Positions 14,934 through 61,353 of a stretch of 64,000 bases of DNA are shown piece after piece. Source of the DNA: an uncultured Bacteroidales bacterium (GTDB taxonomy: Bacteria; Bacteroidota; Bacteroidia; Bacteroidales; JAGOPY01); contig CAZUDV010000014.1 in NCBI GenBank assembly GCA_964619555.1, positions 22,658 to 86,657 of the forward strand. The letters run 5' to 3'. The first letter of the stretch is position 1, and each line of letters begins with the position of its first letter. Under the pieces are notes generated by a model that did no database searches, was not told where the DNA came from, and worked only from the letters and a program-made list of their open reading frames with translations. The translations under genes were made by a program, and so were the position numbers.

Positions 14934-15007
14934 GGCGAGGTAGCTCAGGTGGTTAGAGCGTCGGATTCATAACCCGAAGGTCGAGGGTTCAACTCCCTCT
15001 CTCGCTA
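14934..15007 (+). tRNA. tRNA-Met (CAT), probably elongator; integration target
   Basis: GGCGAGG acceptor, GCTC/GAGC D-stem, TCGGA-TTCATAA-CCCGA anticodon arm, GAGGG-TTCAACT-CCCTC T-arm, TCTCGCT-A; CCA not encoded. Ile2 identity not excluded. Confidence 0.95.
14966..14982 (+). repeat. attL core (anticodon loop to variable loop of tRNA-Met)
   Basis: TTCATAACCCGAAGGTC, identical to 61312-61328. Confidence 0.93.
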
Positions 15008-15016
15008 CTCCGCGAC

Positions 15017-15041
15017 AGCCCTGCATTGCAGGGCTTTTTTT
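15017..15041 (+). terminator. Intrinsic terminator after tRNA-Met (element-supplied copy)
   Basis: AGCCCTGC-ATT-GCAGGGCT followed by a T run. Confidence 0.85.
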
Positions 15042-15058
15042 GTTCCTGATGTCTTCTG

Positions 15059-15083
15059 TGGAGTAAGGAAATGGAGTAAGGAA
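15059..15083 (+). repeat. Two TGGAGTAAGGAA direct repeats, putative integrase arm-type sites (left end)
   Basis: Copies at 15059-15070 and 15072-15083; three more at the right end. Confidence 0.8.
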
Positions 15084-15112
15084 AATTTTCATTTTTTTCA
15101 TAAATTCATTCC

Positions 15113-16411
15113 TTACGCATCTTCAAAAAGTCTGAAACCCTTCATCATTTTTACGGATTCAATTTGCGCCAAATAGTGCCTTTGAACTACATCTGTACTA
15201 CTATGATCACTCACGATACTACTCATTGCCAAACCGTATTTTGATTCCATTTTAGTGATGTATGTCGTGCGCAAATCTTTGAAGCACTTCGATTCGTCGA
15301 TCCCAGCCTTCCTCTTGAAATGTGTAAAGCCTTTAGTGATAATACCGTGAACCGTATTTCGTGATAACTCAGGCGCAATAATATATTGATTGCTACCTTG
15401 CTTGTCGTCGTAACTGCATTCTTGGTCAAAGACTTTTTTAAGTTCGTTGATAACTGGTATTCTTTTAATTCTTTTATTCCTTTGATCATTATTCCCAAGA
15501 ATTTTATTGACTTTTTGGTTTTCAACCCTAAGTAGCAATATACCATCTTCAAGAACTACATCCTCGTATTTTAGCTCCACTAATTCACCTAACCTTAAAC
15601 ACGTATACAAACCAAGTTTAAACGCTGTTGGTAACCATTCCCTAAATAAATTGCGTTCCCAATCGCTGTCATAACCATTTTCGTATGTGGTATAGTCCAA
15701 AATCTTTTCAAATTCTTCTTGTGAAAAAATGACTGGGTCATAATAAACTGTTTGCTGCTTCATCTTTAAAAATGGGTTATTAATATTTAAGTTTTCGTTA
15801 TTTATCATATGATTATAAAATCCACGGAGTGATGCAATCATATTGTTGTAGGATTTAGGTGAAAATTTCTTTCGGTTCATATAACCAAAAAAAGCATTCA
15901 AGTGAATTTCAGTAATTTGATCTATTCTAAGAGTATTCAGATTGACCATTCCAGCAGTACTTTCCAAAAAATACCTGAAATGTCTTTTAAAATCATCGAC
16001 AGTTTTTTTGCTAACCTTTCTCGATGCTTCAAAATCATAAAATCCCCCTTGCGTTTTGAATGTTATATACCTTTCCATCTGATAGGTTAGAAGGTACTTA
16101 ACCTGATCAGGAGCATCGTCAGTATTCAGGTTATTTAAATTATAGCCGCTGGTCTTTAACTGCTCGATGAATTCCATTCGAATCTTATCAACCTCTTGGA
16201 TATCTTTGGTTTTAAGAGCCATAGTTTTACAAACACGGTGAGTACCTTCAACGTGGACTTTAAGCTTAAACACCTGCTTTTCATACGGATGGTCACAATC
16301 AGGAAATGGCTTCAGGTACCCATCTTTGATGTTCGAATATCTCTTGCATTTATTGCAATAGACATATAATCCTGTTCTTTTATATTTTTCAGGAATCCTG
16401 AGCCCCTTCAT
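15113..16411 (-). CDS. Tyrosine integrase with SAM-like core-binding domain
   Basis: YTCLRLGEL (Arg I), FKDLRTTY (HxxR variant), DHSSTDVVQRHY (His/Tyr); transcribed toward attL. Confidence 0.9.
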   Translation of the reverse strand: MKGLRIPEKYKRTGLYVYCNKCKRYSNIKDGYLKPFPDCDHPYEKQVFKLKVHVEGTHRVCKTMALKTKDIQEVDKIRMEFIEQLKTSGYNLNNLNTDDAPDQVKYLLTYQMERYITFKTQGGFYDFEASRKVSKKTVDDFKRHFRYFLESTAGMVNLNTLRIDQITEIHLNAFFGYMNRKKFSPKSYNNMIASLRGFYNHMINNENLNINNPFLKMKQQTVYYDPVIFSQEEFEKILDYTTYENGYDSDWERNLFREWLPTAFKLGLYTCLRLGELVELKYEDVVLEDGILLLRVENQKVNKILGNNDQRNKRIKRIPVINELKKVFDQECSYDDKQGSNQYIIAPELSRNTVHGIITKGFTHFKRKAGIDESKCFKDLRTTYITKMESKYGLAMSSIVSDHSSTDVVQRHYLAQIESVKMMKGFRLFEDA

Positions 16412-16745
16412 ATCCTATTTCTTTCAAAAATTTATTAGGGTTGAAGTGCACTATTGTCGATTTATCAGACTCAGTGTTAATTTCCAGAAGAAAATAATTC
16501 GTAATATCCTCACTATCATAGGCTTTATAATAGTCAAGCCACTTGTCCTTGTACAGGTGTTTTAAATGTTCAATAATTGGTTCTTCAAATGCTTTCCTGA
16601 ACTCATATTCTATGACCACATTTTTATTTAGCAGGGAAAAAATCTTTATTCCGTGATCAAGGCACCACCTCGCAGCGGCATCTTTAGTGCTGATTTTAAG
16701 TTTTTCAGCGACTTCAGCGAGTGTTAGATAAGTAATTCCACACAT
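16389..16745 (-). CDS. Excisionase-like HTH protein
   Basis: YLTLAEVAEKLKIST N-terminal HTH, overlapping the integrase start; start trimmed to ATG 16745 (track start 16778). Confidence 0.65.
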   Translation of the reverse strand: MCGITYLTLAEVAEKLKISTKDAAARWCLDHGIKIFSLLNKNVVIEYEFRKAFEEPIIEHLKHLYKDKWLDYYKAYDSEDITNYFLLEINTESDKSTIVHFNPNKFLKEIGYEGAQDS

Positions 16746-17547
16746 ATTTTTAATAACATCAATAAAAAAGATTAGCATCCTGAATCATTCGGTTCCTTTA
16801 CATATGAAAATGATCCTTTGAACTAATCTTCACAAATTGAAGGGGTCTACCTCATTTTTTCTATCGACCCAGAGGTTTATTAAAACCGATCCCAAGACTT
16901 AAAAAAGCTTTGGAATCGGGCCTACCATAAATATAAGAATTTTTTTTGAAAAAGGCAAATCGGAATGGCAGATTTTCTGGCCCTTTTAGAAGTTTTTCGA
17001 ATTATAATTTGCAAAGTTTTTTATGATACGGTTTCGATCAAAATACAGTCAAAAAAGGGGCTGAAATATTGGGTTAAAAAATTCCAAAATATTTTTTGCG
17101 TTTTTGGGCTTGAAATGGGAATGAGGTCGAAATATCCAGAAAAAAGTTCCAAGATTTTTTCGAAGGTAGGGACACTCAAGATATTGGTACCCGTATATAA
17201 CTGTATATCAATACGATAGGGCAGGGATACCCCTGTTGGCGGGGGAAGGGGGGCATAAGCCCTCATTGAATTTCTTCCGAATAATCCAAAATAAAACCGT
17301 GTTGATTTGAGCACGGCACAAGATTAAAGCGCTTTAGTATCACCACTTAATAACCATTCGCCCCGCCATCACAAACAACATCACTCACAAAATGCCCGCC
17401 AGATAAGCCTTCCCTGAGCCCATTCAGCAAAATATCCAGCAAATTCGGTAACTTGATGCAATAAATGTGGCGTAAAGCCAGCAATAACAAGCTGTTTGGT
17501 GGATTATACGGTTTTGTGGAATTCGGTAATTTCAGCCCCAAAATGCA

Positions 17548-18816
17548 TCATTCTTCCAGCTTCCCCTGTTCTTCCGCTTCACCCAGCAGTTTCATTTGAT
17601 CGTTCAGTCCATCGCTGGCTATGCCGCTAACACGTCCCCAAAAGCCCAGAACGGATTGTTTCGCCAATAGTATATGAGATTCACGCTCGGCAAACCTTTT
17701 AAGCGCGGCTTCCTTTTCGGATGCAACGCTGCGATCCATTTTGCGGAATGCGTCCAGAATGCCCGTAATGTGGTTCACGAAATCATTGGATAGCAGGTAG
17801 TCATAAAGCATTTCCATCTTGGAGCCCTTGTTCTGTTGGCTCACAAGAGCGGCGGATACTTTGATCATACCGTCCCGAAGCAACATTACGACATCAGGCA
17901 GGTAATCAAACGAACATACCCAGACGCCATCCCTGAAGTGGGTATTTTGGTTATCCTTCGGCATTGTTCTTGTCACCAACACCAGTACATCCGCTTTGGA
18001 AGCTCTACCATCATCCTTTAATTTCCCGATCCAAGCATCGGCAAAATTTTGGGTTTCCTTCCGCTCATACAAGATAACACCTGACGGTTGACCAATGTTG
18101 TTTTTGACGATCTGGATCACGTCCGCCCCACGCATTCCGCTCGGAACATCGCTGATTTCATCAATGGGGAATGCAGCTTTAAGAAAATCGCGCATTTCGA
18201 TCTCTTTGACTTCCCCAGCCATCTTCTGGCTCCCTTGTTCCAGTTTGGTCTGGGCATCCAGTAGTTGTTGCTTCAAATTGGCAATGAGCCTATCCTGCTT
18301 TTGTATTTCATCTTTGGTTTTATCGGCTTCCGCTTTTTTGATCTTCTCCCGTTCTTCAGCCAAGTCATCATTGAGCTTCTTTTGGTACGTGGCTTCCAGT
18401 TCCTCTTTTAATCCATCCTTCTCCCGTTGCAGTTTTGCCAGATCAGCCCTTGTCTTGTTCAACTCCTTTAACTGGTTGTTTTTCAGGTTTAATTCATCTT
18501 CCAGCGTTTTGACCTGTTCGGACTTTTCTTCATCGATTTGCTTTCGCAACGTCTTTTCCATTGCCGATTTTTCAGCCGACAGCTTCAGCTTAACGGCAGC
18601 ATCCACTTGGGTTTGAATGTCCTCTATTGCCTTCTGGACTTCATCCTGAGCCCTCTGGATGGCTTTTTCTTTCTCTTGATATTCAATATCCTTTTGAGCT
18701 ATTTTGGCTTCATATTCCATTTTTAGTTGATCCTGAACTTGGTGGAACAATACGTCGCTTACGTTGATGATTGCCCCGCATTCGGGGCATTTGATGGTAT
18801 TGGGTTGGGCTTCCAT
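17548..18816 (-). CDS. DUF2130-family protein (Zn ribbon, coiled coil, nuclease-like C-terminus)
   Basis: IKCPECG, long coiled coil, QGSQK..GEV.E, FPIDEISDVPSG..GADVIQ, WIGKLKDD. Confidence 0.82.
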   Translation of the reverse strand: MEAQPNTIKCPECGAIINVSDVLFHQVQDQLKMEYEAKIAQKDIEYQEKEKAIQRAQDEVQKAIEDIQTQVDAAVKLKLSAEKSAMEKTLRKQIDEEKSEQVKTLEDELNLKNNQLKELNKTRADLAKLQREKDGLKEELEATYQKKLNDDLAEEREKIKKAEADKTKDEIQKQDRLIANLKQQLLDAQTKLEQGSQKMAGEVKEIEMRDFLKAAFPIDEISDVPSGMRGADVIQIVKNNIGQPSGVILYERKETQNFADAWIGKLKDDGRASKADVLVLVTRTMPKDNQNTHFRDGVWVCSFDYLPDVVMLLRDGMIKVSAALVSQQNKGSKMEMLYDYLLSNDFVNHITGILDAFRKMDRSVASEKEAALKRFAERESHILLAKQSVLGFWGRVSGIASDGLNDQMKLLGEAEEQGKLEE

Positions 18817-18972: not shown

Positions 18973-21921
18973 CTAATCTTTTACACACCTTACCGATAAA
19001 CCAATATAATTCCAAAAAACCAAAGTGCTTATAGAAGCAACATCGGTTATCATCCTATTCATAAAAGATAATTGTGATGAATTAGTTGATGTCCAATAGT
19101 CACCGCAACTGCCAATTAAATTGAAAGTTCCCCCAGTTCCTCTACCCCCGCCACCAAAAGCCGTGAAACCACTTTCATTGGTTGCCCCAGTATTAGGGGG
19201 ATTCCAATGATCTAAACCAAATTCCTTCATCTTTCCACCTGCAACATTTTCACCGCCAAGATAGGTAATAAGTATCGACCATTCTTCACTGGCAGGAAGA
19301 TGCCATCCTTGTTGGCATATACCTTGAATGCCTTCTTCCGTCGAATATTGCATCATTTCATCCCATTGGTACAATCCACCGTATACATCACAATTCGATT
19401 GACTATTGTTATAGCAATATTTTTCAATAATGGAATTATTACTCTGTTCTGTCGCACCGCTTAACTGTGTTCCGATATTTAAATTTTCTCCCATCCAACA
19501 TTGCGTTCCTATTAACACAGTCGCATACTTTCGACCGTCCCGATCATCTGTTAGTGAATCCCCGCAAGCCCACGTGTTACAAACGGTAGTTGATTGGTTA
19601 AGGGCAGTGGCAGTTGAGTTAGCTGATGCATTAAACGCCCAGACATATCGACTGTAAATTGTTCCGCACGTTAAACCAGTTTCCAGCATTGAAGTATCAG
19701 TACCGACATCTGTTGCTGTTGAGTAGTTATTCTCCGTGTTCCATTTATATCCCGTAGCTCCTGATACAGGATGCCAATTCCAGATGATTTGATTTGTGGA
19801 TGACGTGTGTGTTCCTTCTATTGGTGATTGAAGTGTGTTATCTTTAATACATCTGACAGAAAAACCGTGATATTTAGCGATCTCATAACGGTTCACGCCT
19901 ACACTATCGTGGTAAAGTCTTCGAACCCAAGTACTCGTTGGATCATCTTCTAATGATTCCCAAAAGTATACGTAATCACCAACCCCATAAAAATTCGTAT
20001 TCTGACTACGGACACCACCTGCAATTGCAGTGAAACCACTTTCATTGGTTGCCCCAGTATTAGGGGGATTCCAATGATCTAAACCAAATTCCTTCATCTT
20101 TCCACCTGCAACATTTTCACCGCCAAGATAGGTAATAAGTATCGACCATTCTTCACTGGCAGGAAGATGCCATCCTTGTTGGCATATACCTTGAATGCCT
20201 TCTTCCGTCGAATATTGCATCATTTCATCCCATTGGTACAATCCACCGTATACATCACAATTCGATTGACTATTGTTATAGCAATATTTTTCAATAATGG
20301 AATTATTACTCTGTTCTGTCGCACCGCTTAACTGTGTTCCGATATTTAAATTTTCTCCCATCCAACATTGCGTTCCTATTAGAATTGTCGCATACTTTTG
20401 ACCATCGCGTGTATCTGTTATGGAATCCCCACAAGTCCAAGTGCCACAATCCGTTGTTGAAGTTGATAAGAGGGTGGGATATGAATTTGCCCCACCATTA
20501 TACGCCCAAACATATCTTGTATATAATGAATCACAAACAAGCCCAGTTTCTGTGTATGATGTATCTGTGCCTAAATCAATGGCTGTTGAGTAATCACTGG
20601 TTGTGTTGAATTTATAACCAGTGGCTTCTGATACGGGTAGCCAGTTCCAAATGATTTGGTTTGATGATGGAATATGGGTTCCTGAGGTTGGAGATGATAA
20701 TGCCATATCTTTTATGCAGCGAACAGATAATCCGTGAGCGCGAGCTGAATAATCTTGGGTATATGCCGTATCTGAATCAAAAGTTAAATTAAAAGGATTA
20801 TAGACCCCAACTGGATTTATAGAACTTGTCCAATAAGTCCCTGTAACACTACCAATTGGAGCTCCCCCCAAATACGGATGCCTATTTCCTGCAAGTACTA
20901 ATTTTAACACAGAACCGAAAGCCCCATTTGCATTTATAGAACCCCAAGTCGCAATTTCTTCATCCATTTCCGTCTTTGTTGGTAAACGAAATCCAGTAGG
21001 ACAAGGATTATTGATCCCCGTTAATCCCTGCCATAATAAATCATTTTGTGGAACTCGCCAGTCCAAAGGATCAGTAACAGTTGTTATAAACAGAGAATGA
21101 TTTGGGTCATCAGTGGGTGAAGTAACATCCGTGGTGCCGTTAACTGGTGTTCCATTTGTTTGACTTGACCAGCTTATTAATTCGTGCCCGTCAGCCAATC
21201 TACCCCATTGGAAAAGAGAGCCATAAGCCAAGTAATCGTCAACTGAAGTTGCTGCTTGGCTGGCTCCAAGATTGCGATCTAACCACATTTTTCCAGTAAC
21301 AGGGTTTGTTATTTCGCAGTAGGTATTACCATAATTGTCAACGATATTGCAATTTGGGGTACAATCGTCGGTCGATAGGTTTAATTGAGTTGCAGGTGAT
21401 ACTCCACATAAATCATATGCCCAAACATATCTTGTGTAAGCTGTTCCGCAGGTCAAGCCTGTTTCGACATAGCTTGTGTCTTCACCTAAATCTATACCAT
21501 TATCAAAATCATTATCTGAATTCCATCTATAATAGACAGGCTTGAGGTAGTACGAAGTCGGATCACTTGCCCATTTCCAAGTGATTTCCGTTAATGAAGA
21601 AATGCTGGTTGCGGAATCTGGAGAAATTGGAGTAGAACAAAGACGGATATTTCTCCATACACCTAAAGTGTAAATAGATATTGTTGGTGATCCATATTCA
21701 CCACAGTTGGTGCAAAACACGCTCAGTCCTTCCGCGGGATTGGGTATGGCTGAGCGTTCAGAAATGTTCATTCTTGGGAGTAATACTCCTTTAGACGTGG
21801 ATTGTATATCAAGCATCGCCGATGAATCTGGAAGTGAACCATTTGTGTTGATGGCAACTTGTGATGTTGCATTGATGCTCATTAATATCAAAATAGGAAT
21901 AAGGTATTTGTTGGCTTTCAT
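18973..21921 (-). CDS. Secreted protein with three FISUMP (Fib_succ_major) domains separated by FN3-like repeats
   Basis: Signal peptide from MKANK (21921), PDSSAMLDIQSTSKGVLLPRM, three units ending SVRC(I/V)KD, WMGENLNIG/YGGLYQW/GWHLP motifs, spacers with YTRYVWAY. Confidence 0.88.
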   Translation of the reverse strand: MKANKYLIPILILMSINATSQVAINTNGSLPDSSAMLDIQSTSKGVLLPRMNISERSAIPNPAEGLSVFCTNCGEYGSPTISIYTLGVWRNIRLCSTPISPDSATSISSLTEITWKWASDPTSYYLKPVYYRWNSDNDFDNGIDLGEDTSYVETGLTCGTAYTRYVWAYDLCGVSPATQLNLSTDDCTPNCNIVDNYGNTYCEITNPVTGKMWLDRNLGASQAATSVDDYLAYGSLFQWGRLADGHELISWSSQTNGTPVNGTTDVTSPTDDPNHSLFITTVTDPLDWRVPQNDLLWQGLTGINNPCPTGFRLPTKTEMDEEIATWGSINANGAFGSVLKLVLAGNRHPYLGGAPIGSVTGTYWTSSINPVGVYNPFNLTFDSDTAYTQDYSARAHGLSVRCIKDMALSSPTSGTHIPSSNQIIWNWLPVSEATGYKFNTTSDYSTAIDLGTDTSYTETGLVCDSLYTRYVWAYNGGANSYPTLLSTSTTDCGTWTCGDSITDTRDGQKYATILIGTQCWMGENLNIGTQLSGATEQSNNSIIEKYCYNNSQSNCDVYGGLYQWDEMMQYSTEEGIQGICQQGWHLPASEEWSILITYLGGENVAGGKMKEFGLDHWNPPNTGATNESGFTAIAGGVRSQNTNFYGVGDYVYFWESLEDDPTSTWVRRLYHDSVGVNRYEIAKYHGFSVRCIKDNTLQSPIEGTHTSSTNQIIWNWHPVSGATGYKWNTENNYSTATDVGTDTSMLETGLTCGTIYSRYVWAFNASANSTATALNQSTTVCNTWACGDSLTDDRDGRKYATVLIGTQCWMGENLNIGTQLSGATEQSNNSIIEKYCYNNSQSNCDVYGGLYQWDEMMQYSTEEGIQGICQQGWHLPASEEWSILITYLGGENVAGGKMKEFGLDHWNPPNTGATNESGFTAFGGGGRGTGGTFNLIGSCGDYWTSTNSSQLSFMNRMITDVASISTLVFWNYIGLSVRCVKD
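19163..19514. repeat. 352-bp direct repeat, copy A (FISUMP domain 3)
   Basis: Identical by eye to 20030-20381 (offset 867). Confidence 0.92.
20030..20381. repeat. 352-bp direct repeat, copy B (FISUMP domain 2)
   Basis: Identical by eye to 19163-19514. Confidence 0.92.
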
Positions 21922-22080
21922 AGCATTTCGCTTAGGTTTGTGAATAAAATTCGTCACAATATTTGGCTTAGAATTCCCCACTTACCCACCTTACCTATAT
22001 TAAGGTTTACCGTACCACTTGACCGATTAACCGTAAAATTCCCAGAAAAATAAATGGTGAAACGAATCTTGGAAGGAAGA

Positions 22081-25000
22081 TTAATCCCCCACAATCGGCA
22101 GCACGATCTCCACAATGGTTCCAGTCTGGCTGGGTTCCATCTTGCTTTTATCCGTGAGCTTTACGGAATATTTGGTGGTTTTGTCCGATTTGGCAAATAG
22201 TTCTATGCGTCTTTGGGTGATCCCCATTGCTTTGTCCAATCGCGCCGAGTTGTCCCGTTTGGCTGAAAGCGACTTCTCGATGCCCACTCCGTTATCTTCA
22301 ATGATGCATTTGAGCGATTGGGTATCCATATCGGAGAATGTGATGGATAACTGACCATCGTTGGTTGGAATGGGCGATATGCCGTGCTTGATGGCGTTTT
22401 CAACCATTGGCTGGATCAACATCGATGGAATGGATATGTCGGCGGGATGCGTTCCCGTTTTGTTGGTGATCTCATATTCAAATTTGTTGGCGTACCTAAC
22501 CTGCTCCAACTTCAGGTAAGAATCCAGATAAGCCATTTCTTCTTCCAGCGTGATCACCTTTTTGGAAGCCAACGCGAAGGTCTGGCGGATCATATTGGAA
22601 AAATCGGATAACAGTTTAATGCCCTTGGTGGCATCCCGCTCCATAATGTACCGTTGCAAGGAGTTCAATACATTAAACACAAAATGGGGATTCATCTGGG
22701 CTTGCAATGCCTTCATTTCCAGTTCCGCGATCTCCAATTCAACCTTGGCTTTGTTCCTGATGTGCCGTAAGCGGTAATAAAAGATCAGCCATATGGCAAG
22801 TCCAATAATCAATGCCACCAGTGAAATGAACCACCACGCTTGCCAATAGGGTGGCTTTATGGTAAATTCCATCAATGTCTGCGTCTGTTCCTGCTGGCTG
22901 TTCAGGTTATATGCTTTGACAATGAAGCTGTATTTGCCAGAGGGAAGGTTGGTGTAAACGGCTTTCCTTTCCGCTCCAGCATCTTTAAATGATTTATCGA
23001 AGCCTTCCAATTGAACGCTGAAACGGTCTTTATTGGGATTGAGCAGGTTTACGCTGTTATAATAAAATGTAAGGCTATTTGAACTGTATGGGAATTTCCA
23101 TCCATTCGCGTTGGCGGGTGATTGCAAGGGATCGTTAAAGATGTAGATTGAATCCGTGGTTTCCAGTTTGGATAGCATAAGGGTGGGTTTTGTGCCGCTG
23201 GACTTCATTATGGCTTTTGCATCAACCTTTACCAGATTGTTTTGGGATGCCAGCCAGATATTGCCATCATCATCAAGGATTGGGCTTGTCAAACCGAAAT
23301 CCGAATAACCTTCAGCCGTGGAAAAATAGCGAATATCATTTTTGCCAGTTGCATAGAGTTCAGGCAGATCGATCAGCAACATCCCTTTGTTGGTGCCCAC
23401 ATAGAGATTGTTCAGCTTGTCGCAGATCATCCAGATGAAATTCCTTCCATATGAGTCATACAAGGAATCCAGCCGATGTCTTATGATGAAGCTGTCAGCG
23501 GATATGGAGCCAATGCCAATTTCTCCCGTGTTGGTAGAAAACACGATGTTTCCATCCTGATCTTGGCATATGTCGGAAACGTTATCTGGGAGCTCTGGAG
23601 CGGCTTCGTTTAGATGGATGATGGTGGTGCCATTATAAAGATAAAGTCCGCCGTAGATGCTGGAAAATAGCATTCCAGAAGGCGTGGGAAGCATCTTTGA
23701 TATAGCCTTGGGCAGAACGGAATTATTGGAATGAAACTTTTGTATGGAAAGTTCTTCTGCCAGATTGGGATCATTGATGATGTAAAGGCTATCAATCCAA
23801 TAACTGCTGCAAAACAGGTCATTACCCTTATCAAAGCTGATCGCTCCATACCTGATGCTGGGCGTAAAGCCTTTAATGATCCTTTTGTGATCCTCGGAAA
23901 ATTTCATAAATCCAACCGTGGTGCTTGCCCATAGATTATTGTTTTGATCATTGGCAATCATAAAGAATTCTGGCAGTAGCCAAAGTGGCGTACTTTTAAT
24001 GGCTACTCCTTTATAGAACCTCTTGATGATTTCCTTGATCAACTCGCCAGAAGAAGACTCCAACACCAAGTCAATGGGCAGGCTTTGGAAATCATCAGGA
24101 TTGCCCCAAAGGATCAAATCCTTAAAAACAAGGTAAAGAGAACCAGAATGATAAAACAATTGTCGAAAATCCCTATCCTTATCCAAAAAACCACGCATTG
24201 AGTAATTGGTGAAAATCTCCTTTGGTTTGGCAACCAGTCCGTTTTTTTCGGTGGCAATGAATAGGATGTCGGAATTTGGGTCGAAAAGCACGTAGTTGGT
24301 CTTGATGTCTTCCAATCCAAGGTGGGCGGTATAATCAATAAGACTTTGACCATCATAACGTAAAATGCCAGAAGCGATGGAACCAAACAAGGGAAACCAG
24401 ATGTTTCCATCGGAATCCTCGCACATATTAAAAACCAATCCCGTTCTTGAAAGGTGTATATTGCGTTTGGTTTCAATTTCATTGGTCGTGAACTGATTGC
24501 CCCAAATGGTATCCCCTTTTGAAGTGACCAGAGCCGTGGTGATGTTATGCAATGGCTTACCGTCTGGGGAAGGTTCGGTCAATCGCACCAGCTTCTTTGT
24601 TTCAGGATAAAACTTCAGCGCAAAATCCTTGAAGGGGAAAACGTAAACAAAGCCCTTGCTTTCCAAAAACCATAGGATTTCGTGTTCTTCATCCATTTTG
24701 CCGTTGGACTTGCCATAGAAATCCATCCGACCGTCTTTCAGCGTGTAAAAGCCATCATCGGCTCCGATGAACATTGTTTCATACGTTTTGGAATAATATA
24801 ATCGGCGGATGAAATTGCTGTGTAAGCCATCTTTCGTGGTGAAGCTGGTGAATGTTTTGCCGTCATATTTTGTCGCCCCGCCATCGTAACAGGCAAACCA
24901 GAAATTGCCGTGTCCATCTTGGGTGATGGCTCGAACATCATTGGAAGCCAATCCTTCCTTCTTGGTAATCGTATGGAAATCCAATCCGTCAAATATGGCA

Positions 25001-25170
25001 ACCCCAGCATCCGTTCCAATCCATAACCTTCCAATGCTATCCTGATATAGGCAGTTCACCTGATTGGAAGGCAATCCATCATCCACGGTGTACGTGCGGG
25101 TGTAATACTGTTGGGCTACTCCCAGTATGGGGATGACGACAAAAACCAGATATGTGAGGATGCGTTTCAA
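22081..25170 (-). CDS. LytS-type sensor histidine kinase with periplasmic beta-propeller (Reg_prop) and Y_Y_Y domains
   Basis: DGLPSNQV repeats, YTNLPSGKYSF, PPYWQAWWF TM, LQAQMNPHFVFNVLNS, QPMVENAIKHG, EDNGVG. Confidence 0.92.
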   Translation of the reverse strand: MKRILTYLVFVVIPILGVAQQYYTRTYTVDDGLPSNQVNCLYQDSIGRLWIGTDAGVAIFDGLDFHTITKKEGLASNDVRAITQDGHGNFWFACYDGGATKYDGKTFTSFTTKDGLHSNFIRRLYYSKTYETMFIGADDGFYTLKDGRMDFYGKSNGKMDEEHEILWFLESKGFVYVFPFKDFALKFYPETKKLVRLTEPSPDGKPLHNITTALVTSKGDTIWGNQFTTNEIETKRNIHLSRTGLVFNMCEDSDGNIWFPLFGSIASGILRYDGQSLIDYTAHLGLEDIKTNYVLFDPNSDILFIATEKNGLVAKPKEIFTNYSMRGFLDKDRDFRQLFYHSGSLYLVFKDLILWGNPDDFQSLPIDLVLESSSGELIKEIIKRFYKGVAIKSTPLWLLPEFFMIANDQNNNLWASTTVGFMKFSEDHKRIIKGFTPSIRYGAISFDKGNDLFCSSYWIDSLYIINDPNLAEELSIQKFHSNNSVLPKAISKMLPTPSGMLFSSIYGGLYLYNGTTIIHLNEAAPELPDNVSDICQDQDGNIVFSTNTGEIGIGSISADSFIIRHRLDSLYDSYGRNFIWMICDKLNNLYVGTNKGMLLIDLPELYATGKNDIRYFSTAEGYSDFGLTSPILDDDGNIWLASQNNLVKVDAKAIMKSSGTKPTLMLSKLETTDSIYIFNDPLQSPANANGWKFPYSSNSLTFYYNSVNLLNPNKDRFSVQLEGFDKSFKDAGAERKAVYTNLPSGKYSFIVKAYNLNSQQEQTQTLMEFTIKPPYWQAWWFISLVALIIGLAIWLIFYYRLRHIRNKAKVELEIAELEMKALQAQMNPHFVFNVLNSLQRYIMERDATKGIKLLSDFSNMIRQTFALASKKVITLEEEMAYLDSYLKLEQVRYANKFEYEITNKTGTHPADISIPSMLIQPMVENAIKHGISPIPTNDGQLSITFSDMDTQSLKCIIEDNGVGIEKSLSAKRDNSARLDKAMGITQRRIELFAKSDKTTKYSVKLTDKSKMEPSQTGTIVEIVLPIVGD

Positions 25171-25173
25171 ACG

Positions 25174-25935
25174 TCAGGTAGGCTTTGGTCTTTTTAGAAG
25201 CTTGTTCACCAAATCGCCTTGGTTGCGGTGGGATACTTCCAATTCCTTCCCATTGTCGAGTATCAGTATGTTTCCTGCCGACTTATCAAAGGTTCTGGCG
25301 TGACCAAGGTTCACCAGATAACTCTTGTGTATGCGGAAGAAATACTCCATAGGCAGGACTTCTTCCAGCCATTGAAGGGTTTTGCTGATCAGCAAGGGTT
25401 TGCCAGAGATCGTGTGAATTTTGGCATAGTTACCTTCACCCTCGCAATAAACGATCTCCTTGCAGGACATCAATTCATATCCGTTTGCTGTGGGAATGGC
25501 AATCTTGTTGGTATCGTAATTCGGCTGAAGGTTTGCCAACAAGGTTTCAATTTGTTTCAGGGAAACATCCTGCGCTTTCCGTTGCTCAAGCCGTTTCAAC
25601 GAATCACGGATTTCAATGGGCTGAACGGGTTTTAGCAGGTAATCCAATGCGGCACATTTGACCGCTTGAATGCCGTATTGGGCGTAAGCGGTGGTGAAGA
25701 TCACGTCAAAGTTGATCACCTCGAAGTATTTGAAAAGCTCAAAGCCATTTTCGGTGGGCATTTCAATATCCAGAAAGACCAGATCGGGTTTGAGCTTCTT
25801 GATCTTTTCGGCTCCTTCCTTTACATTATTAGCTGTTTCAACCACCCTGATCTTATCACTCAGAAATTCTTGTATGACCAGTTTCAGCGATACAATGGCA
25901 TTTGGTTCGTCGTCAATGATAATCGCGGTGTACAT
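25174..25935 (-). CDS. LytTR-family response regulator
   Basis: IIDDE, FLDIEMP, DYLLKP, FFRIHKSYLVN. Confidence 0.95.
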   Translation of the reverse strand: MYTAIIIDDEPNAIVSLKLVIQEFLSDKIRVVETANNVKEGAEKIKKLKPDLVFLDIEMPTENGFELFKYFEVINFDVIFTTAYAQYGIQAVKCAALDYLLKPVQPIEIRDSLKRLEQRKAQDVSLKQIETLLANLQPNYDTNKIAIPTANGYELMSCKEIVYCEGEGNYAKIHTISGKPLLISKTLQWLEEVLPMEYFFRIHKSYLVNLGHARTFDKSAGNILILDNGKELEVSHRNQGDLVNKLLKRPKPT

Positions 25936-27352: not shown

Positions 27353-27371
27353 ATTAAGTTCATCGTTTTGT

Positions 27372-49988: not shown

Positions 49989-50021
49989 TAAAGCAGATAT
50001 TTTAATACCAAAATTGAAGTT

Positions 50022-50891: not shown

Positions 50892-50947
50892 AATTATTAT
50901 TAACTATGGTGCGATTTTATTATTATATTACTTAAATCTATTGATAT

Positions 50948-51253
50948 ATGTTAATATTAGGTGAATCTGGAAAATTGGAATTAATTGATGATTACAGTGA
51001 CTCTGTTAGGACAATTGCTACGGATGTTAAGTATGCAGAACCTAATGATTTTGAAGACGAATATACTCTTATTCTTTACAATAGTGGGAAAGTTGAATTA
51101 AGGTTTTCGAGGGATGGCTCATTGTTGACTACAGTTGCAAATACCAAAGCATTAAAGGTTGGATGGATGACAAATGACGCAATTTTTGTTGAATTTGATG
51201 GTGGGAAAAGCACTCTCTATTCAAAAAAAGGTGTTTTTATTTGTCAACTATGA
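50948..51253 (+). CDS. Hypothetical beta-rich protein
   Basis: 101-aa ORF with repeated ..SGK(L/V)EL / GGKSTL hairpin units. Confidence 0.58.
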   Translation: MLILGESGKLELIDDYSDSVRTIATDVKYAEPNDFEDEYTLILYNSGKVELRFSRDGSLLTTVANTKALKVGWMTNDAIFVEFDGGKSTLYSKKGVFICQL

Positions 51254-51760
51254 TGATGAAACAGGTTGGGGGATGAAAATTCCACCAACACCCCCCCCAA
51301 AAATTCACCCCCCCCCTTTTATTATCAAGGGTTTGGGGCATATTTCTGAACCAGTTTACCTTCCACGAACGGATAATGGTCATAAACATAAGCCATCAAA
51401 CTATTTTGCGAAAATTTTAAACGCTTCATTATTAATCAATTAACAGTTTTCCCAATTTCTTTCATAGCCTACCAACTTTTTCACGAAAAACGGGAATGAA
51501 CCATCATTCAATTGTGCAAAATATATTATGTAATAAATTGATAATTAGCGTTTTAAATTTGGTTTTTCCAAAAATTATTCGGATATTTGCACCAGTTCTT
51601 TTTTCATAAATTGTAAGGTTGATCTGGCTGGGTTGCGCAGCCGAAGAATGGGGGCACTTTTTGAATTGCTTAGCCGCCCATTGACCCACGGTTTTTTAAC
51701 ATTTTTCCGTGGGAAGCAACAAATTCCGCCGAATATTATGGCTGGTGAATTTATTAAGCG

Positions 51761-51847: not shown

Positions 51848-54049
51848 TTATACTGTAGGGGTCATCTTCACCCGATCACGCATTCTGGGCAGGTAATCTG
51901 GGTCGTCCAGATGATTGCCAGAATCGTTAAAAGGAGAATGCCACGGTTCATTGATATAGTTTGGATACATCCCGTTATGATAGCCTTCAGAACCCGACAG
52001 GGTGAATATCTTGCTACGTTTGCTTACGACATACGTGGTGATTTTCTTCTTTCCCTTTCGGAATTTGATATATCCACGGTCATTTAACTGCTTTGTCACG
52101 CTTGGCACGTTGATCCGTTTGCCGTACTGCGAAAAATGGGACAAGAGCAAAGATACCAGTTCCAAACTGCCGATTTGGAATTCTTCCGCCTTGTCCGCGG
52201 GTTGATCCAGATATTCATCGATGATCAGGTCAACATCGGATTGCTGTATGTAATCCTCGTTCAATTGCTTTAGCAGTTCAATATCCGACGGTTCGAATGA
52301 GTATTTGAAGCCGCTTTCAAACAGGTGGTATGCTTCCATAAACAGATCATCCAGATCGACTACCGCTAACTTTTGCTTATCGATATCAGCCAATTCGATG
52401 GGGATTATCCTGCGGTTCTTTTGCTCACGCACCACGCTCAGGTTATTGCCTGAGCCAGCGAAGGAGCAACGGCGTTTGATGGTGCTGATCCTTCGGTCGT
52501 ATTTGCGGCGGGTGGTCAGTTCCTTATTGCTCAGGATGGTTTTGAAGGTTTTTTCAGCTTCATATGTTCGACCGTCCATTTCATCATCTATGACCAGCAG
52601 GGATTGGCTCATAACCACTTTAAAGTCATCGTCGAATGACAGCGAATGCTCCACACGGTACTTTTGCAGGGCTTCAGGCAAGGTATACTTTCGTAGCATT
52701 GTTGTCTTGCCAATTCCCTGTTCAACCGATAACAGCGTCAGGAAAAATTCATTGGCGTATTCACCGTCCAATGCTTGGGCAACCATACCAACATACCATT
52801 TCTTTAAAAAATGCAGCACCGCGCTTTTGTCGATGTTTGGGTTTTTCAAGATCAGGCAGTCCAGCCATCGTTCAAAGGTGCCAGATGGGTTTCGATGCCT
52901 GTTGGCTTCAATGTAATCACGGACGGGGTGAACTTCGGTAATGTGAGTGCATTTAGCAACTTCTTCGAAGTTTGCACGGGGAATTTCCCTGCCGAAATGC
53001 TTTTTCATATCGACGAACAATGTATTATAAACCCTTTCGTCCACGACAACATCGTTGAAGGTCAGGTCTTGTACAAATGAGTCGAATCGCAGCCCTATCC
53101 CGTTGAGATAGTCCAAGATGTCATCTGAATTTACTCGTTGCGTCCTTCCTTCCACTTGGAATCCGTATTCGGGCAATAGCCTGACGGTGGTGCGGTAATC
53201 ATTATTGCCTTCCAGTACCTGCAACACTTGGAAGTGGTTGTAGGGCTTTTCTGATATAAAATCAGTTGATGTCGAGAAACAGAAGAAGACCCGTGAATCC
53301 TTGAAGTAATACCCAGAATGGCTGGCGACTGAGCCATCCCGAAGAAGATAGACTTTTTCATCATCTTCCCTGACCACCGACCAATCGTGTTTTTCGAACA
53401 GTTCTATGATACTATATTGCTCGTTGAACGCATTGATGGCTGGGATACTGTATTTGTAGGGGTTATCATCCTTCTTGGGGAAATACCGTGTCAGGCTTCT
53501 TGCAGTTTCCAATAAGAAGTTGCGTTCCTGTGGCGTGATCACTGGGATATCCACGGTCAGGTTCTTCAGGTAGAAGGTTCCCTGCAATACCTTGTTATTT
53601 ATGGCATTAGTGCAGAAGTAGCCCCCCTCGCCACGGGTTTCGATGATAACCGATTTATCCGAATGCAGGGCAAGCTTTTGGTTGGGCTCGATCTGTGCAT
53701 CAGGACAGCAATATATGATATGGTATCCTTGATTGGGGGTGGTTTGGATGATCAGCCGATCCAGCAGGTCTTTGGGGATCAAGGCTGCGTATTCATCCCA
53801 TATGGTCTTTTTGGGATCATTCTTGACATCCACATCAATGATCTCCACATTGCCGCTTATGATCCCGCAGATGACCCCAACGGATCCTTGGTTCAGGTAG
53901 TGGGAATGCCAGTAATCTACTGGTGCCTTTTCGTGTTGGAATTCCGTCCATTGTTGGAATGGTATCTTTTGGGAAGACACGGGAATGATGGACAGAGGGA
54001 AGTTATCCGTTGGTGTTTGTTCGTGTGGTGTTTCATATGCTGTACTCAT
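51848..54049 (-). CDS. Bifunctional primase-polymerase (PrimPol) fused to a VirE/VapE-like P-loop helicase domain
   Basis: KIPF..W..FQ, GVICG, IIDVDVK, TPNQGYH, IETRGEGGY; C-terminal QGIGKTT, VIDDEM, RRKYDR, SFAGSGN, RRIIPI. Confidence 0.87.
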   Translation of the reverse strand: MSTAYETPHEQTPTDNFPLSIIPVSSQKIPFQQWTEFQHEKAPVDYWHSHYLNQGSVGVICGIISGNVEIIDVDVKNDPKKTIWDEYAALIPKDLLDRLIIQTTPNQGYHIIYCCPDAQIEPNQKLALHSDKSVIIETRGEGGYFCTNAINNKVLQGTFYLKNLTVDIPVITPQERNFLLETARSLTRYFPKKDDNPYKYSIPAINAFNEQYSIIELFEKHDWSVVREDDEKVYLLRDGSVASHSGYYFKDSRVFFCFSTSTDFISEKPYNHFQVLQVLEGNNDYRTTVRLLPEYGFQVEGRTQRVNSDDILDYLNGIGLRFDSFVQDLTFNDVVVDERVYNTLFVDMKKHFGREIPRANFEEVAKCTHITEVHPVRDYIEANRHRNPSGTFERWLDCLILKNPNIDKSAVLHFLKKWYVGMVAQALDGEYANEFFLTLLSVEQGIGKTTMLRKYTLPEALQKYRVEHSLSFDDDFKVVMSQSLLVIDDEMDGRTYEAEKTFKTILSNKELTTRRKYDRRISTIKRRCSFAGSGNNLSVVREQKNRRIIPIELADIDKQKLAVVDLDDLFMEAYHLFESGFKYSFEPSDIELLKQLNEDYIQQSDVDLIIDEYLDQPADKAEEFQIGSLELVSLLLSHFSQYGKRINVPSVTKQLNDRGYIKFRKGKKKITTYVVSKRSKIFTLSGSEGYHNGMYPNYINEPWHSPFNDSGNHLDDPDYLPRMRDRVKMTPTV

Positions 54050-54227
54050 TTTGTTTCACATTTTTCTCTTGCTTATTCATTTCCCGCAATCTTCTATGCA
54101 ATAGCCATTTGGTGTAAGTGGTTATGCGCATAAACTCGCTGCTGGCTTCCGCTTCAAGTTTTTTATAGAAATCTTCGTCCAGCGTAAGATTCAACTTGAT
54201 CTTTTTTTGTTTTTCTGATTTTTTCAT
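54033..54227 (-). CDS. Ribbon-helix-helix (CopG-like) regulator
   Basis: IKLNLTLDEDFYKKLEAEA...ITTYTKWLL; overlaps the replicase start. Confidence 0.62.
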   Translation of the reverse strand: MKKSEKQKKIKLNLTLDEDFYKKLEAEASSEFMRITTYTKWLLHRRLREMNKQEKNVKQNEYSI

Positions 54228-54374
54228 TTGAATTAATTTTTATCAGCTTATTATTTTGGACACTGGGTGTCCCTTTTGCAATAAATAGTCATTAGTTGCC
54301 GAAAGGAAAGAGTTGTTGCCAAAAATTTTCTTTTTTTCTACTTTTTTCTATTATTCATTGGTTTATTTTGTCAA

Positions 54375-54515
54375 AGGTGGACAGGTGGACAGGCAAAAAA
54401 AGGCATTTAAACAGGAATTGAAACAGTGACAGTGGAAAATCAGTTAACTGAAAATTGACTGTCACTGTTCCGTATGTTTAAAAGTGGCTTGTCACCCTGT
54501 CCACCCTGTCCACCT
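54375..54515. repeat. 141-bp nested inverted-repeat structure, candidate replication origin
   Basis: AGGTGGACAGGTGGACAGG / CCTGTCCACCCTGTCCACCT, TTTAAACA / TGTTTAAA, AACAGTGACAGT / ACTGTCACTGTT and central TCAGTTAACTGA, all centred at about 54445. Confidence 0.8.
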
Positions 54516-54533
54516 ATGATAATTATATCATAA

Positions 54534-59204: not shown

Positions 59205-59567
59205 CCACCAAACCTCCCCCATATAATTATGGCAAACCTTTTTCGGTCTAAACCCCAATAAACCTCCCCCCAAATAAATACCCCGAAATAAACGGACGGT
59301 TATTTTGTTCTAACATACTACCATCAGCACGCTTCCCAGAATGATAAATACTTATCACTTTAATATTTATAAACTGGCTAACCTATTGCTTTCCACCACT
59401 TTTTTCACTATATTTGAGCCATTACAAGGGTCAGCCATCACTTTTTCGGTAAATCTTTCTCTGCCCCTGTCTGCCAATATCCTTCATCAAACTGGCGGTG
59501 ATCCCTTTAAAGATATCATTATACCATACGTCAGGTCTTTATGTGGTCTTTCTAATAAACCAAACCA

Positions 59568-60587
59568 ATGAAAAACCTTTACATCATTTTTATTGCGCTG
59601 CTTTTGGCAAGCGGCGCAATGGCACAGACAAAGCAGCCCTGCTCCACCTGCCTGCCAGAGGGCATTATATTCACTACTCAAGCCCAGATTGATAGCTTCC
59701 CAATGAACTACCCTAATTGTAATGAGATTGATGGTTACGTAACAATCAGCGGCGATAATATAATTAATCTGGATAGCTTAATTAATGTTACTCAAATTGG
59801 AGGATTTCTCGAAATTGGATATGCTTTTATGAAGCCTGATGATGGGTGGGTATGCGCTGGTAATCCAAATTTGATGAACATCCAAGGATTGCAAAACCTA
59901 ACAATCGTCGGTGGATTCTTGCAGATATTTGGTAACAGTGTTTTAACTGAATTGACAGGACTTGAAAGTTTAACAACTATAGGTGGTTCTCTTTTCATTG
60001 GAGCAATTCTTCCCCAAGGCTGGGGAGTATTACCTTGTGGTAATGCTATTGAAGATTTAACGGCTTTAAGTAATTTAGAATCAATAAATGGAGAGCTTAT
60101 TATTGAATCAAATTCCCTATCATCTTTAGAAGGATTAAACAATATTGATACAAGTACAATTACTTATTTAAGAATTTTTGGGAATTCCAATCTATCACAT
60201 TGCGAAATTCAGAATATTTGTGATTATCTAAATGCTGCTAATGGAAATGCATATATTGGCTATAATGCTTCAGGCTGTGACTCTGAGCAGGAAGTTGTAG
60301 AAGCTTGTGAATCTACTGATGTGAATGAATATCCTTTAACGCAAGATATGGATATTTTTCCTAATCCCTCCTCAACAAACACCATCGCCATTGAACTCCC
60401 CAGCACAACCACGCCACAAAAGAACACTACCCTGACCATCTTTAATATCAACGGTCAGGTTATATCACAGCGCCAGATCACGGAACCATTAATAAATATG
60501 GATATATCTGGGTTGAGCCAAGGGGTTTATTTTGTGAAGGTGGTGAGCAATGATGGGGTGAGCGTGGAGAAGTTTGTGAAGCAATAG
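59568..60587 (+). other. T9SS C-terminal-sorting-domain protein with receptor-L-domain-like repeats
   Basis: Signal peptide, TTQAQIDSF, repeated L.GL..L..IGG.L.I, C-terminal IFPNP...IFNINGQ...GVYFVKV...KFVK. Confidence 0.87.
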
Positions 60588-60695
60588 ATTAGAAATCTGA
60601 AAATAAGTTTCTTACTTTTCGGTTATGAAAATTTGTCTATGAACTCAATTTGATAACACAATCGTTCGTGGAAATTTCAGAAACATTTTGAAACT

Positions 60696-61154
60696 ATGGA
60701 ATCATTGAAAAGAAAAAGATTCCTGCAATCATTTCTTGGTGCATTGGGGGCAAAACAAATAATATGGACTTCACAAGATGATAATTCAATATTTGGGACT
60801 GTTATTTATGACGAAACTGACCCAGACGAAAGACAGGACTTTGTTTGGCATATGACAGAGAATAACGTGCCAAATGACACTATTATAGACCTACTGACGT
60901 ACTTGACCACTAAAAGTCTAATTGACAATGACCATCTAATAGTTCCCGTAGCAGAAATTGAAATTCCTGATATTGACGATGAAACCAGGGATAAACTTTT
61001 TGACGAGTTGTTTAGAGTGTCTGTTGATATGATAGATAGCGGAAAAGAAACTGACTTTTACTTCATCCACCAATGTAATGAGAATAATAAAGAACCACCA
61101 ACACCACAAAAGCAATGGTGGATGACCACACTGTTCAGGTGGAGAAATTTGTGA
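60696..61154 (+). CDS. Hypothetical acidic protein; 3' end appears chimeric
   Basis: 152-aa ORF whose last about 25 codons overlie an out-of-frame T9SS-CTD-like remnant. Confidence 0.6.
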   Translation: MESLKRKRFLQSFLGALGAKQIIWTSQDDNSIFGTVIYDETDPDERQDFVWHMTENNVPNDTIIDLLTYLTTKSLIDNDHLIVPVAEIEIPDIDDETRDKLFDELFRVSVDMIDSGKETDFYFIHQCNENNKEPPTPQKQWWMTTLFRWRNL

Positions 61155-61183
61155 AGGAATAGATTCATAAAATAGTTGGTTTT

Positions 61184-61239
61184 TGGAGTAAGGAATGGAG
61201 TAAGGAAGGTCGAAAAAATGGTCTTCGTGGAGTAAGGAA
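61184..61239 (+). repeat. Three TGGAGTAAGGAA direct repeats, putative integrase arm-type sites (right end)
   Basis: Copies at 61184-61195, 61196-61207 and 61228-61239. Confidence 0.8.
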
Positions 61240-61311
61240 AGGCTAAGATATCAAATTTGTATATTGCTGTTATATAGTTAATTATACAATCATAAAATTG
61301 CATATATCTGG

Positions 61312-61353
61312 TTCATAACCCGAAGGTCACGAGTTCAATTCTCGTCCTCGCTA
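61312..61353 (+). pseudogene. attR: displaced 3' half of tRNA-Met
   Basis: TTCATAACCCGAAGGTC-ACGAG-TTCAATT-CTCGT-CCTCGCTA; no 5' half upstream. Confidence 0.92.

Follow-up and report, generated by a model that had tools for sequence, protein, structure and literature searches.

Defense islands are usually explained as the cargo of phages, satellites, integrative and conjugative elements (ICEs) or plasmids. The locus described here, an element of 46.3 kb in the genome of an uncultured Bacteroidales bacterium, raises the question of how whole defense systems come to ride an integrative and apparently self-replicating backbone that has no recognizable exit from the cell. The sequence that we examined is a 64-kb stretch of contig CAZUDV010000014.1, called the window below; the host genome to which it belongs comprises 3.86 Mb in 26 contigs and is 98.1% complete. 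In our judgment the element is probably an integrative, self-replicating, non-self-transmissible island that mainly carries anti-phage defense genes. It is best read as a tycheposon-like element that fits the class of cryptic integrated PrimPol elements, and sequence comparison places it in a family of at least 85 loci that share a replicase module and a small-recombinase slot. A first-pass annotation of this DNA had proposed a satellite-like or helper-mobilized defense island. It was right to see a foreign integrative element with precise ends that carries a replication module and defense cargo; its satellite-like label is unsupported.

An element recombined into a tRNA-Met gene

The element is foreign DNA that was site-specifically recombined into the anticodon-loop/3' half of a tRNA-Met gene, which was rebuilt with the element's own copy (Table 1). 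This tRNA-Met(CAT) gene is the sole tRNA gene that ARAGORN finds in the window. An 80-nt direct repeat (14961-15040 and 61307-61386, 84% identity) occurs with a start-to-start spacing of 46,346 bp, and inside it lies a 17-nt att core, TTCATAACCCGAAGGTC, that is identical at both ends and whose first base falls in the anticodon loop; the first-pass annotation had reported precise att cores at this spacing. The repeat at attR is the displaced 3' half of the native tRNA-Met gene plus its terminator. Its tRNA fragment matches the tRNA-Met 3' halves of the congeners G005, G006 and G008 at every one of 43 nt (100% identity), whereas the 3' half of the intact tRNA-Met gene at attL differs from theirs, and the 3' half at attL is therefore an element-borne copy. 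Replacement of a tRNA 3' half is a classic signature of integrase-mediated insertion.

The ends of the element carry a second kind of repeat. The 11-mer GGAGTAAGGAA is present in five copies in the window (at 15060, 15073, 61185, 61197 and 61229, all on the + strand) where 0.04 would be expected, and none of 100 shuffles gave five. The copies stand only at the element's ends, two on the inner side of attL and three on that of attR, and are probably arm-type sites of the integrase. Every open reading frame (ORF) of the backbone is intact, and so are the two att cores and the five arm repeats.

The base composition and the congeners agree with a foreign origin. The GC content of the element is 39.9% compared with 47.2% for the genome, with a standard deviation of 3.6 points among 2-kb windows. 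Congener G008 has the left flank, a native tRNA-Met gene that is intact and the endonuclease gene of the right flank within 3 kb of one another. A tetratricopeptide repeat (TPR) histidine kinase gene and an ORF of 130 aa, which follow the tRNA-Met gene, are all that separates them, and an integrase is absent. This gene order indicates that the tRNA-Met site is unoccupied in G008, an empty site of the kind that the first-pass annotation had suggested looking for in related genomes; the tRNA-Met locus of G006 resembles it. A 300-aa XerC/XerD-type tyrosine recombinase (12582-13484, + strand) lies outside the element in the left flank and is kept in the congeners.

A replicase with a conserved partner and an origin-like site

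The replicase combines a PrimPol (archaeo-eukaryotic primase) domain, matched by phrog_19930 at 2e-40 over residues 19-310, with a superfamily 3 (SF3) helicase domain matched by phrog_1313 (2.9e-34, residues 336-639) and by the VapE-like family of Pfam (4.2e-22). The catalytic motifs DxD, GxH and GIGKTT are invariant in an alignment of four relatives. Directly upstream of the operon formed by the replicase and the small ORF that overlaps its start lies a composite palindrome, in which two tandem GTGGACAGG iterons on each side, inverted with respect to each other, surround a 24+24-nt palindrome at 54422-54469. Four exact copies of the 9-mer occur in the window, all of them at this site, versus 0.27 expected. 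The structure can be aligned with the upstream regions of three relatives (L016, L017 and L019), among which the GACAGG and CCTGTC blocks are invariant, and a GACAGG...CCTGTC pair 40-220 nt apart precedes the replicase in 16 of 66 loci versus none of 825 control windows drawn from these loci. Iteron origins adjoin pri-rep genes in satellites and plasmids, and by analogy the palindrome may be an origin of replication.

Known phages and plasmids hold distant versions of this protein. The replicase matched 246 phage and 14 plasmid records in public collections, all below 60% identity; identity was 23-31% among the matches listed, and no record covers 80% of the protein. Within the order, matches at E<=1e-10 occur in 43 of 301 genomes, and those outside the host genome reach 33% identity at most.

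A family defined by its replication module

Pattern scans of public collections recovered closer relatives of the replicase at 84 loci beyond the window. Four are in metagenome-assembled genomes (MAGs) annotated as Bacteroidales, Bacteroidia, Bacteroidetes and Prolixibacteraceae (56-69% identity), 79 are in metagenomes (51-68%) and one, L024, is in IMG/VR (61%); a single-protein scan of IMG/VR returned no match. From these loci and the window's element, 85 in all, we called and clustered 1091 ORFs. The replicase is present in all 85 loci and an ORF of about 65 aa overlapping its start in 62, including 59 of the 65 loci that have at least 300 nt of upstream sequence. Other frequent clusters are HTH_3 regulators (37 loci), a 97-aa ORF (28), a serine recombinase (20), a 195-aa tyrosine recombinase (13) and the bacteriophage exclusion (BREX) proteins BrxA (24), BrxB (20), BrxC (18) and a PglX-like methylase (14). 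BrxA lies downstream of the replicase in 14 of the 38 loci with at least 5 kb of downstream sequence. A slot about 3-4 kb upstream of the replicase holds a small recombinase in 21 of the 26 loci with at least 5 kb upstream (serine type in 11, tyrosine type in 12, both in 2), which looks like one conserved function filled by non-homologous enzymes. The serine recombinase of the window is 60-82% identical to its counterparts in L016 and L017.

Around this module the loci vary. The recurrent genes of the family are defense or DNA-modification genes, regulators and recombinases; the cargo differs among loci and is mostly defense, with DUF1156/DUF499 systems carried by relatives in addition to BREX and restriction-modification (RM) systems. 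The related element of genome G312 consists of about 37 kb of low-GC DNA bounded by 18-19-nt repeats, one adjoining its integrase and the other a housekeeping gene, and that of G315, cut off by the end of its contig after at least 28.6 kb, has a stop codon in its replicase. The integrases of L016 and L019 do not match that of the window at E 1e-5. No tRNA gene was found near the relatives' replicases (L016-L019, L021-L023 and 43 longer loci), an uninformative result given that the window's own replicase likewise neighbors only a tRNA fragment. Because the relatives' integrases are unlike the window's, the integration module seems to have been exchanged, and the relatives are uninformative on tRNA-Met targeting. 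As judged by these comparisons, the replication module is the stable part of the element, and integration modules and cargo are what is exchanged.

Genes for transfer and packaging

The question of how the element leaves the cell was approached by scanning 53-63 of its ORFs with Pfam, NCBIfam, PHROGs and PADLOC. At the sensitivity of Pfam, NCBIfam and PHROGs, no relaxase, coupling protein, type IV secretion system (T4SS), capsid, portal or terminase was found among them, which agrees with the first-pass annotation and extends to the family: representatives of the 60 clusters found in at least 3 of the 85 loci include no transfer or virion gene by Pfam or, for 46 proteins, by PHROGs, the latter scan covering the unannotated cluster representatives. 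For the MOBV, MOBQ, MOBF, MOBH and MOBT relaxases, the search consisted solely of running Pfam on the element's ORFs and on the representatives of the clusters. A hidden Markov model trained on 24 relaxase sequences from within the order, which recovers 24 of its 24 seeds, had no match at E<=10 in the 1091 family ORFs. The relaxase family PF03432 was absent from all four host MAGs of the relatives, and it occurs in 19 of 151 genomes of the order.

The search for packaging genes gave the same answer. No small terminase subunit (TerS), capsid, scaffold, Sid/Psu-like protein or head-tail adaptor was found in 53 element ORFs or in the recurrent family clusters, and no structural or packaging family of prophages in PHROGs rose above noise in the element. 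The sole packaging-type match, to the terminase small subunit family phrog_57 (E 2.6e-4), falls on the helix-turn-helix (HTH) of the 132-aa HTH_17 protein. A strict Walker-A/HUH pattern search of the element ORFs was discarded, since it missed the helicase's GIGKTT and its two HxH matches are at chance level.

In six-frame searches, the host genome had no match to Relaxase PF03432, TraG-D_C PF12696 or the CTnDOT TraJ family PF07863, and none to Terminase_6N PF03237, TerL_ATPase PF03354 or the HK97 capsid PF05065; each of the six profiles gave matches in control genomes. By the last three families, there is no marker of a resident prophage in the host genome. A second low-GC island stands at a contig end of the host genome (L148, G000 C17:72000-86095) and holds a 339-aa uncharacterized protein, an HTH_17 protein, a 387-aa VapE/DUF3874 protein, a Toprim and CHC2 primase, RadC, an ArdC-N-like protein and two proteins sorted by the type IX secretion system (T9SS), with no relaxase in its visible part.

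Two paralogous proteins of 302 and 220 aa were examined as the best place for a cryptic relaxase because they are uncharacterized and lie between the HTH_17 genes. An exhaustive profile search collected 152 relatives, and a word-indexed search of 5.8 billion proteins with the 302-aa protein returned only itself. The 38 family members scanned have no Pfam domain, save one that is fused to Phage_int_SAM_5. In the AlphaFold model of the 302-aa protein (predicted local distance difference test [pLDDT] score 84.5), the C-terminal domain resembles Tpt1/KptA (Foldseek E 8.5e-5; VIA Z 11.0 with a root-mean-square deviation of 2.0 over 86 residues for KptA, and Z 7.9 for DarT), and this domain is predicted to have an ADP-ribosyltransferase fold. 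The protein has FYPT where the family consensus is YHxT, and for that reason it may be catalytically degenerate. For the N-domain shared by the two paralogs (model pLDDT 73.4), the best VIA Z was 4.2 and Foldseek gave no match at E<=0.001; no fold is assigned to this domain, its structural neighbors include no relaxase or HUH fold, and neither paralog was seen to resemble a relaxase. The ADP-ribosyltransferase-fold domain is also widespread as stand-alone proteins of 100-170 aa.

Excision genes and a proposed life cycle

The integrase, the PrimPol-helicase replicase, two excisionase-type HTH proteins, the resolvase and RadC, all named in the first-pass annotation, have matches in Pfam, NCBIfam or PHROGs. 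Its xis-like gene next to the integrase reaches HTH_17 at an E value above our cut-off, and its ribbon-helix-helix protein was found by no library. The RteC-like regulator that it had proposed fared between these. The 305-aa ORF has no match to the Pfam RteC family even at E<=10, a word-indexed search of the same 5.8 billion proteins returned only itself, and RteC PF09357 has no match in the host genome at E<=1e-3. The ESM Atlas gave it a score of 0.96, with 28 of 30 matches in RteC-bearing sets but low recognition value, and hhalign matched it to a profile of nine RteC ORFs from the same order (72% probability, E 3.4e-5) over 49 C-terminal columns that form a conserved motif. These two comparisons suggest that the protein may be distantly RteC-like. 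In genome G022 (contig C487), an RteC-like ORF lies 2 kb from a distant VirE-type primase.

From these parts a life cycle can be proposed. In CTnDOT, RteC activates xis2c-xis2d-orf3-exc (PMC3809561). By analogy, the distant RteC-like activator would switch on the HTH_17 directionality factors, which together with the integrase would excise a 46.3-kb circle. The PrimPol-helicase would fire at the iteron palindrome and the circle would replicate as a plasmid-like episome, with the small recombinase resolving multimers, and would reintegrate at tRNA-Met. Transfer between cells would be passive or parasitic, by vesicles, transformation or (generalized) transduction, or by a helper phage or conjugative element acting in trans; the present evidence favors no vehicle.

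Several points weigh against the view of the element as a self-replicating island. No attP or attB junction occurs in the assembled contigs of four cellular metagenome runs (one study) containing the att core, among which no RNA data set is listed: one 27-kb contig of run X1 spans attL, the remaining contigs end inside the tRNA, and the loose ends belong to other tRNA-Met genes. The contig depths of element and flank in these data (40.5/36.5, 38.9/37.8 and 40.9/37.2) are not readable as copy number. Among 81 related loci, about 50 of them entire contigs judging by length, not one has a terminal overlap of at least 20 nt that would point to a circle. The exact iteron motif was seen in just 16 of 66 relatives, and instead of a replication origin the palindrome might be an operator or an origin of transfer (oriT). 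For the small serine recombinase, a role as an invertase is an alternative to the resolution of multimers, and the regulatory step is conjecture because the link to RteC is weak. About 25 ORFs of the element belong to no family, and a transfer function with a new fold may be among them. The lack of a helper in the host genome is a soft result, since MAGs often lose plasmids and ICEs in binning.

Relationship to tycheposons and integrated PrimPol elements

The hallmarks of tycheposons are a tyrosine recombinase, xis, a primase/VirE helicase and a small serine recombinase, with partial tRNA flanks (10.1101/2020.12.28.424599), and the cargo-carrying tycheposons of Prochlorococcus, whose hosts lack conjugation, show enrichment in vesicles (10.1101/2020.12.28.424599, PMC11876622). 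Like tycheposons (10.1101/2020.12.28.424599), the element has a tyrosine recombinase and a tRNA site with full and partial tRNA flanks. It shares with them a replication module with an excisionase, a primase/VirE-type helicase and a small serine recombinase, a likeness judged by gene type. It also shares variable cargo and the lack of conjugation genes, the tycheposon host lineage being itself without conjugation. It differs in phylum and habitat, in carrying defense genes rather than genes for nutrient acquisition and in its length of 46 kb.

The element likewise fits the cryptic integrated PrimPol mobile genetic elements (class iii of PMC5862659), which have a PrimPol replicase, are bounded by att sites mostly in tRNA genes and lack conjugation and virion genes. 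That report names the category and not the present family, and its passage on taxonomic distribution states that of its seven PrimPol-PV1 families only RepE/RepS occurs in Bacteroidetes. The integrated PrimPol category is already known; in the open-access literature searched, we found no published description of the Bacteroidales family.

More tentatively, the relatives could be members of a widespread, undescribed family of integrative episomes of about 30-46 kb in environmental Bacteroidales/Bacteroidia. Their core would be the PrimPol-SF3 helicase, its partner ORF, the iteron-palindrome origin and a small recombinase, and they would act as dedicated shuttles for whole defense systems (BREX, Type I RM and others) that spread without conjugation or virions of their own, for example in outer-membrane vesicles, as a Bacteroidota counterpart of tycheposons. 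We regard this wider picture as possible rather than probable. If the family is active, it would provide conjugation-independent exchange of defense genes in anaerobic environmental Bacteroidota; if it is inactive, the element is an ordinary cryptic island. The palindrome, the small ORF and the PrimPol-helicase would make a compact, testable replicon for organisms that have few genetic tools. A single island of this kind would not surprise a specialist, and it is the family-level pattern that offers a useful and testable lead.

Other explanations

An unlikely alternative is that the element is a phage satellite, induced by a helper phage, replicated and packaged in helper capsids, with defense cargo that protects the host population. 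As in satellites of the PICI, P4-like, PLE, PICMI and VEIME types, an integrase, a regulator and a primase-replicase module, here with an adjacent origin-like site, are found together with a xis-type HTH, defense genes and dependence on the outside for transfer, and satellites are reported to carry defense hotspots (PMC9122126, PMC10085698). A length of 37-46 kb would suit a full-size tailed-phage head, distant relatives of the replicase (24-30% identity) occur in Flavobacteriia phages, and one relative is filed in IMG/VR. Yet no TerS, capsid, portal, head-remodeling, capsid-interference or late-gene regulator family was recognized in the element or among the recurrent family genes, and the satellite-like label of the first-pass annotation has no positive evidence behind it. 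The IMG/VR contig has a resolvase, HTH genes, the replicase and BREX and no virion gene, the single-protein scan of that collection was empty, and the host genome offers neither a terminase nor an HK97 capsid family. The element (46,346 bp, with a relative of about 37 kb) is also 2-6 times the described sizes of satellites (7-20 kb, PMC13376191; 10-20 kb for PICIs, 10.1101/2020.12.28.424599), and cargo that varies freely in size is unexpected under a capsid-size constraint.

We likewise consider it improbable that the element is an integrative mobilizable element (IME) of the NBU type, moved by helper conjugation, either with a hidden relaxase from a new family or by way of an oriT on which a helper relaxase acts in trans. 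Much resembles the excision regulon of NBU1/NBU2 and CTnDOT (PMC3809561): att sites and a tRNA 3'-end target, a large Bacteroidota-type tyrosine integrase of about 430 aa and small HTH excision proteins of the HTH_17 type that resemble Xis2c/Xis2d. Like NBU1/NBU2, the element has a primase among its core genes; the possibly RteC-like 305-aa ORF would be a further likeness, and the palindrome could be an oriT. In the same order, G142:C68, G090:C76 and G121:C249 show the canonical IME arrangement, in which a PF03432 relaxase is encoded 2-4 kb away from a distant VirE-type primase (25-27% identity). Those canonical primases, however, lack the PrimPol half, and the element's replicase is a PrimPol-SF3 helicase fusion and not a VirE/Toprim primase. 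NBUs are named non-replicating, whereas the element has an origin-like site. Unlike NBU and CTnDOT elements, it has no Mob relaxase, tra operon or coupling protein; PF03432 is missing from the element, the host genome, the four related MAGs and the 1091 family ORFs and is found in just 19 of 151 genomes of the order, and the uncharacterized proteins nearest the core are the predicted ADP-ribosyltransferase-fold protein and its paralog. Helper mobilization, as the first-pass annotation had it, would have to do without a relaxase, coupling protein or TraJ in the host genome and remains conjectural.

It is very unlikely that the element is what is left of an ICE or prophage, fixed in place after the loss of its genes for transfer or virions. 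The large size, the many uncharacterized genes and the stop codon in the G315 replicase would suit such a remnant, but the backbone is intact, congeners lack the element at the tRNA-Met site, and 84 further loci keep the replicase module and never a recurrent transfer or virion gene, which argues that the element is not a decayed ICE or prophage. The T4SS (tra operon) and coupling protein of an ICE are absent, as are the terminase, portal, major capsid and tail genes of a prophage. The first-pass annotation had named such decay among the findings that would overturn it; relatives with 51-69% identical replicases are equally without recognizable transfer or packaging genes. Finally, an integrated virus with structural proteins too divergent to recognize has next to nothing to commend it beyond about 17 co-directional, tightly packed uncharacterized genes (39799-51443) and a size within the tailed-phage range. 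The block lacks conservation: relatives whose replicases are 56-69% identical keep no more of it than the first two genes and one small domain. It encodes PAD-fold, ADP-ribosylglycohydrolase, TPR and CFI-box proteins and matches no structural category of PHROGs.

Cargo and other genes

Table 1. Features of the element and its integration site, in window coordinates
Feature	Coordinates	Strand	Remarks	Evidence
tRNA-Met(CAT)	14934-15008	+	Integration target; 3' half element-supplied	ARAGORN
attL core, 17 nt, TTCATAACCCGAAGGTC	14966-14982	+	Inside 80-nt repeat 14961-15040	
Two putative arm-type repeats GGAGTAAGGAA	15060-15083	+	Adjoining attL	Repeat count in window
Tyrosine integrase, 432 aa	15113-16411	-		Pfam Phage_integrase 2.7e-9 and SAM-like N domains; phrog_1 integrase 1.3e-24
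129-aa ORF	16389-16778	-	Overlaps integrase start; possible excisionase-type HTH	HTH_17 E 0.012, below cut-off
DUF2130 protein	17548-18816	-	Cargo; present in 4 family loci	Pfam
FISUMP surface protein (1002 aa), Y_Y_Y histidine kinase, LytTR response regulator	18973-25935	-	Cargo	Pfam, NCBIfam
PDDEXK nuclease, then HTH_3 regulator	26423-27626	-	Candidate defense family PDC-S02	PADLOC PDC-S02 1.3e-157; Pfam NucS_C/YhcG_C, HTH_3
RadC-like JAB protein	27733-28200	+		Pfam 5.9e-40
Type I RM: hsdR, inserted Mrr-type endonuclease, hsdM, hsdS	29989-35679	+		Pfam, PADLOC
DUF3800 protein, 492-aa CoiA_N-like protein, small ORFs, NERD-like 145-aa protein	35825-39741	+	Probable defense cargo	Weak calls
Tight block of about 17 mostly uncharacterized genes	39799-51443	+		NCBIfam, Pfam, PHROGs, PADLOC
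Replicase, 733 aa: N-terminal PrimPol and VapE/D5-type SF3 helicase	51848-54049	-		PHROGs, Pfam
64-aa ORF	54033-54227	-	Overlaps replicase start; conserved replicase partner	ORF clustering of 85 loci
Origin-like site, composite palindrome of about 155 nt	54368-54522	.		Iterons and inner palindrome
HTH_17 excisionase-type protein, 117 aa	55011-55364	+		Pfam 3.3e-12; TIGR01764 8.3e-13
Paralogous uncharacterized proteins, 302 and 220 aa	55467-57027	-	Shared N-domain; between HTH_17 genes	
HTH_17 excisionase-type protein, 132 aa	57030-57428	-		Pfam 2.8e-10; TIGR01764 1.1e-7
Possible distant RteC-like regulator, 305 aa	57516-58433	-	Weak support	ESM Atlas; hhalign
Small serine recombinase (resolvase/invertase type), 188 aa	58638-59204	+		Pfam Resolvase 1.4e-34
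76-aa ORF, T9SS-sorted 339-aa protein, 152-aa uncharacterized protein	59341-61154	+	Right-end cargo	Por_Secre_tail 4e-13
Three putative arm-type repeats GGAGTAAGGAA	61185-61239	+	Adjoining attR	Repeat count in window
attR core, 17 nt, TTCATAACCCGAAGGTC	61312-61328	+	Inside 80-nt repeat 61307-61386	

The first-pass annotation counted about nine nuclease-type genes in the element, a number that our scans did not reproduce. Three are firm (PDDEXK/PDC-S02, HsdR and Mrr), and three fell below the cut-off (the CoiA_N-like protein and two NERD-like proteins).

FISUMP proteins are also encoded in the related elements of G312 and G315. The FISUMP gene of the window contains a 300-nt direct repeat (19148-19447 and 20015-20314, 98% identical, spacing 867 nt), with weaker third copies of parts of it, and this looks like a recent internal domain duplication.

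The block of tightly packed genes includes a PAD_porph-fold enzyme, an ADP-ribosylglycohydrolase (47031-47846), a CFI-box-CTERM protein and a TPR protein, and no virion or transfer family was found in it by the scans with Pfam, NCBIfam, PHROGs and PADLOC. The PAD_porph-fold enzyme cluster is present in 5 of the 85 loci. In the window and in G315, its gene directly follows a homologous uncharacterized gene (421 aa and 233 aa, respectively), and the two (39799-41913 in the window; L019:7317-8890) may form a two-gene cargo module. A small domain is common to a 101-aa ORF of the block (50948-51253), to IceA2-repeat proteins and to the C termini of Endonuclease_NS proteins, and it occurs in all four genome-derived elements (L022:7590-8081; L021:5848-6243 and 3846-4781; L017:16459-17595).

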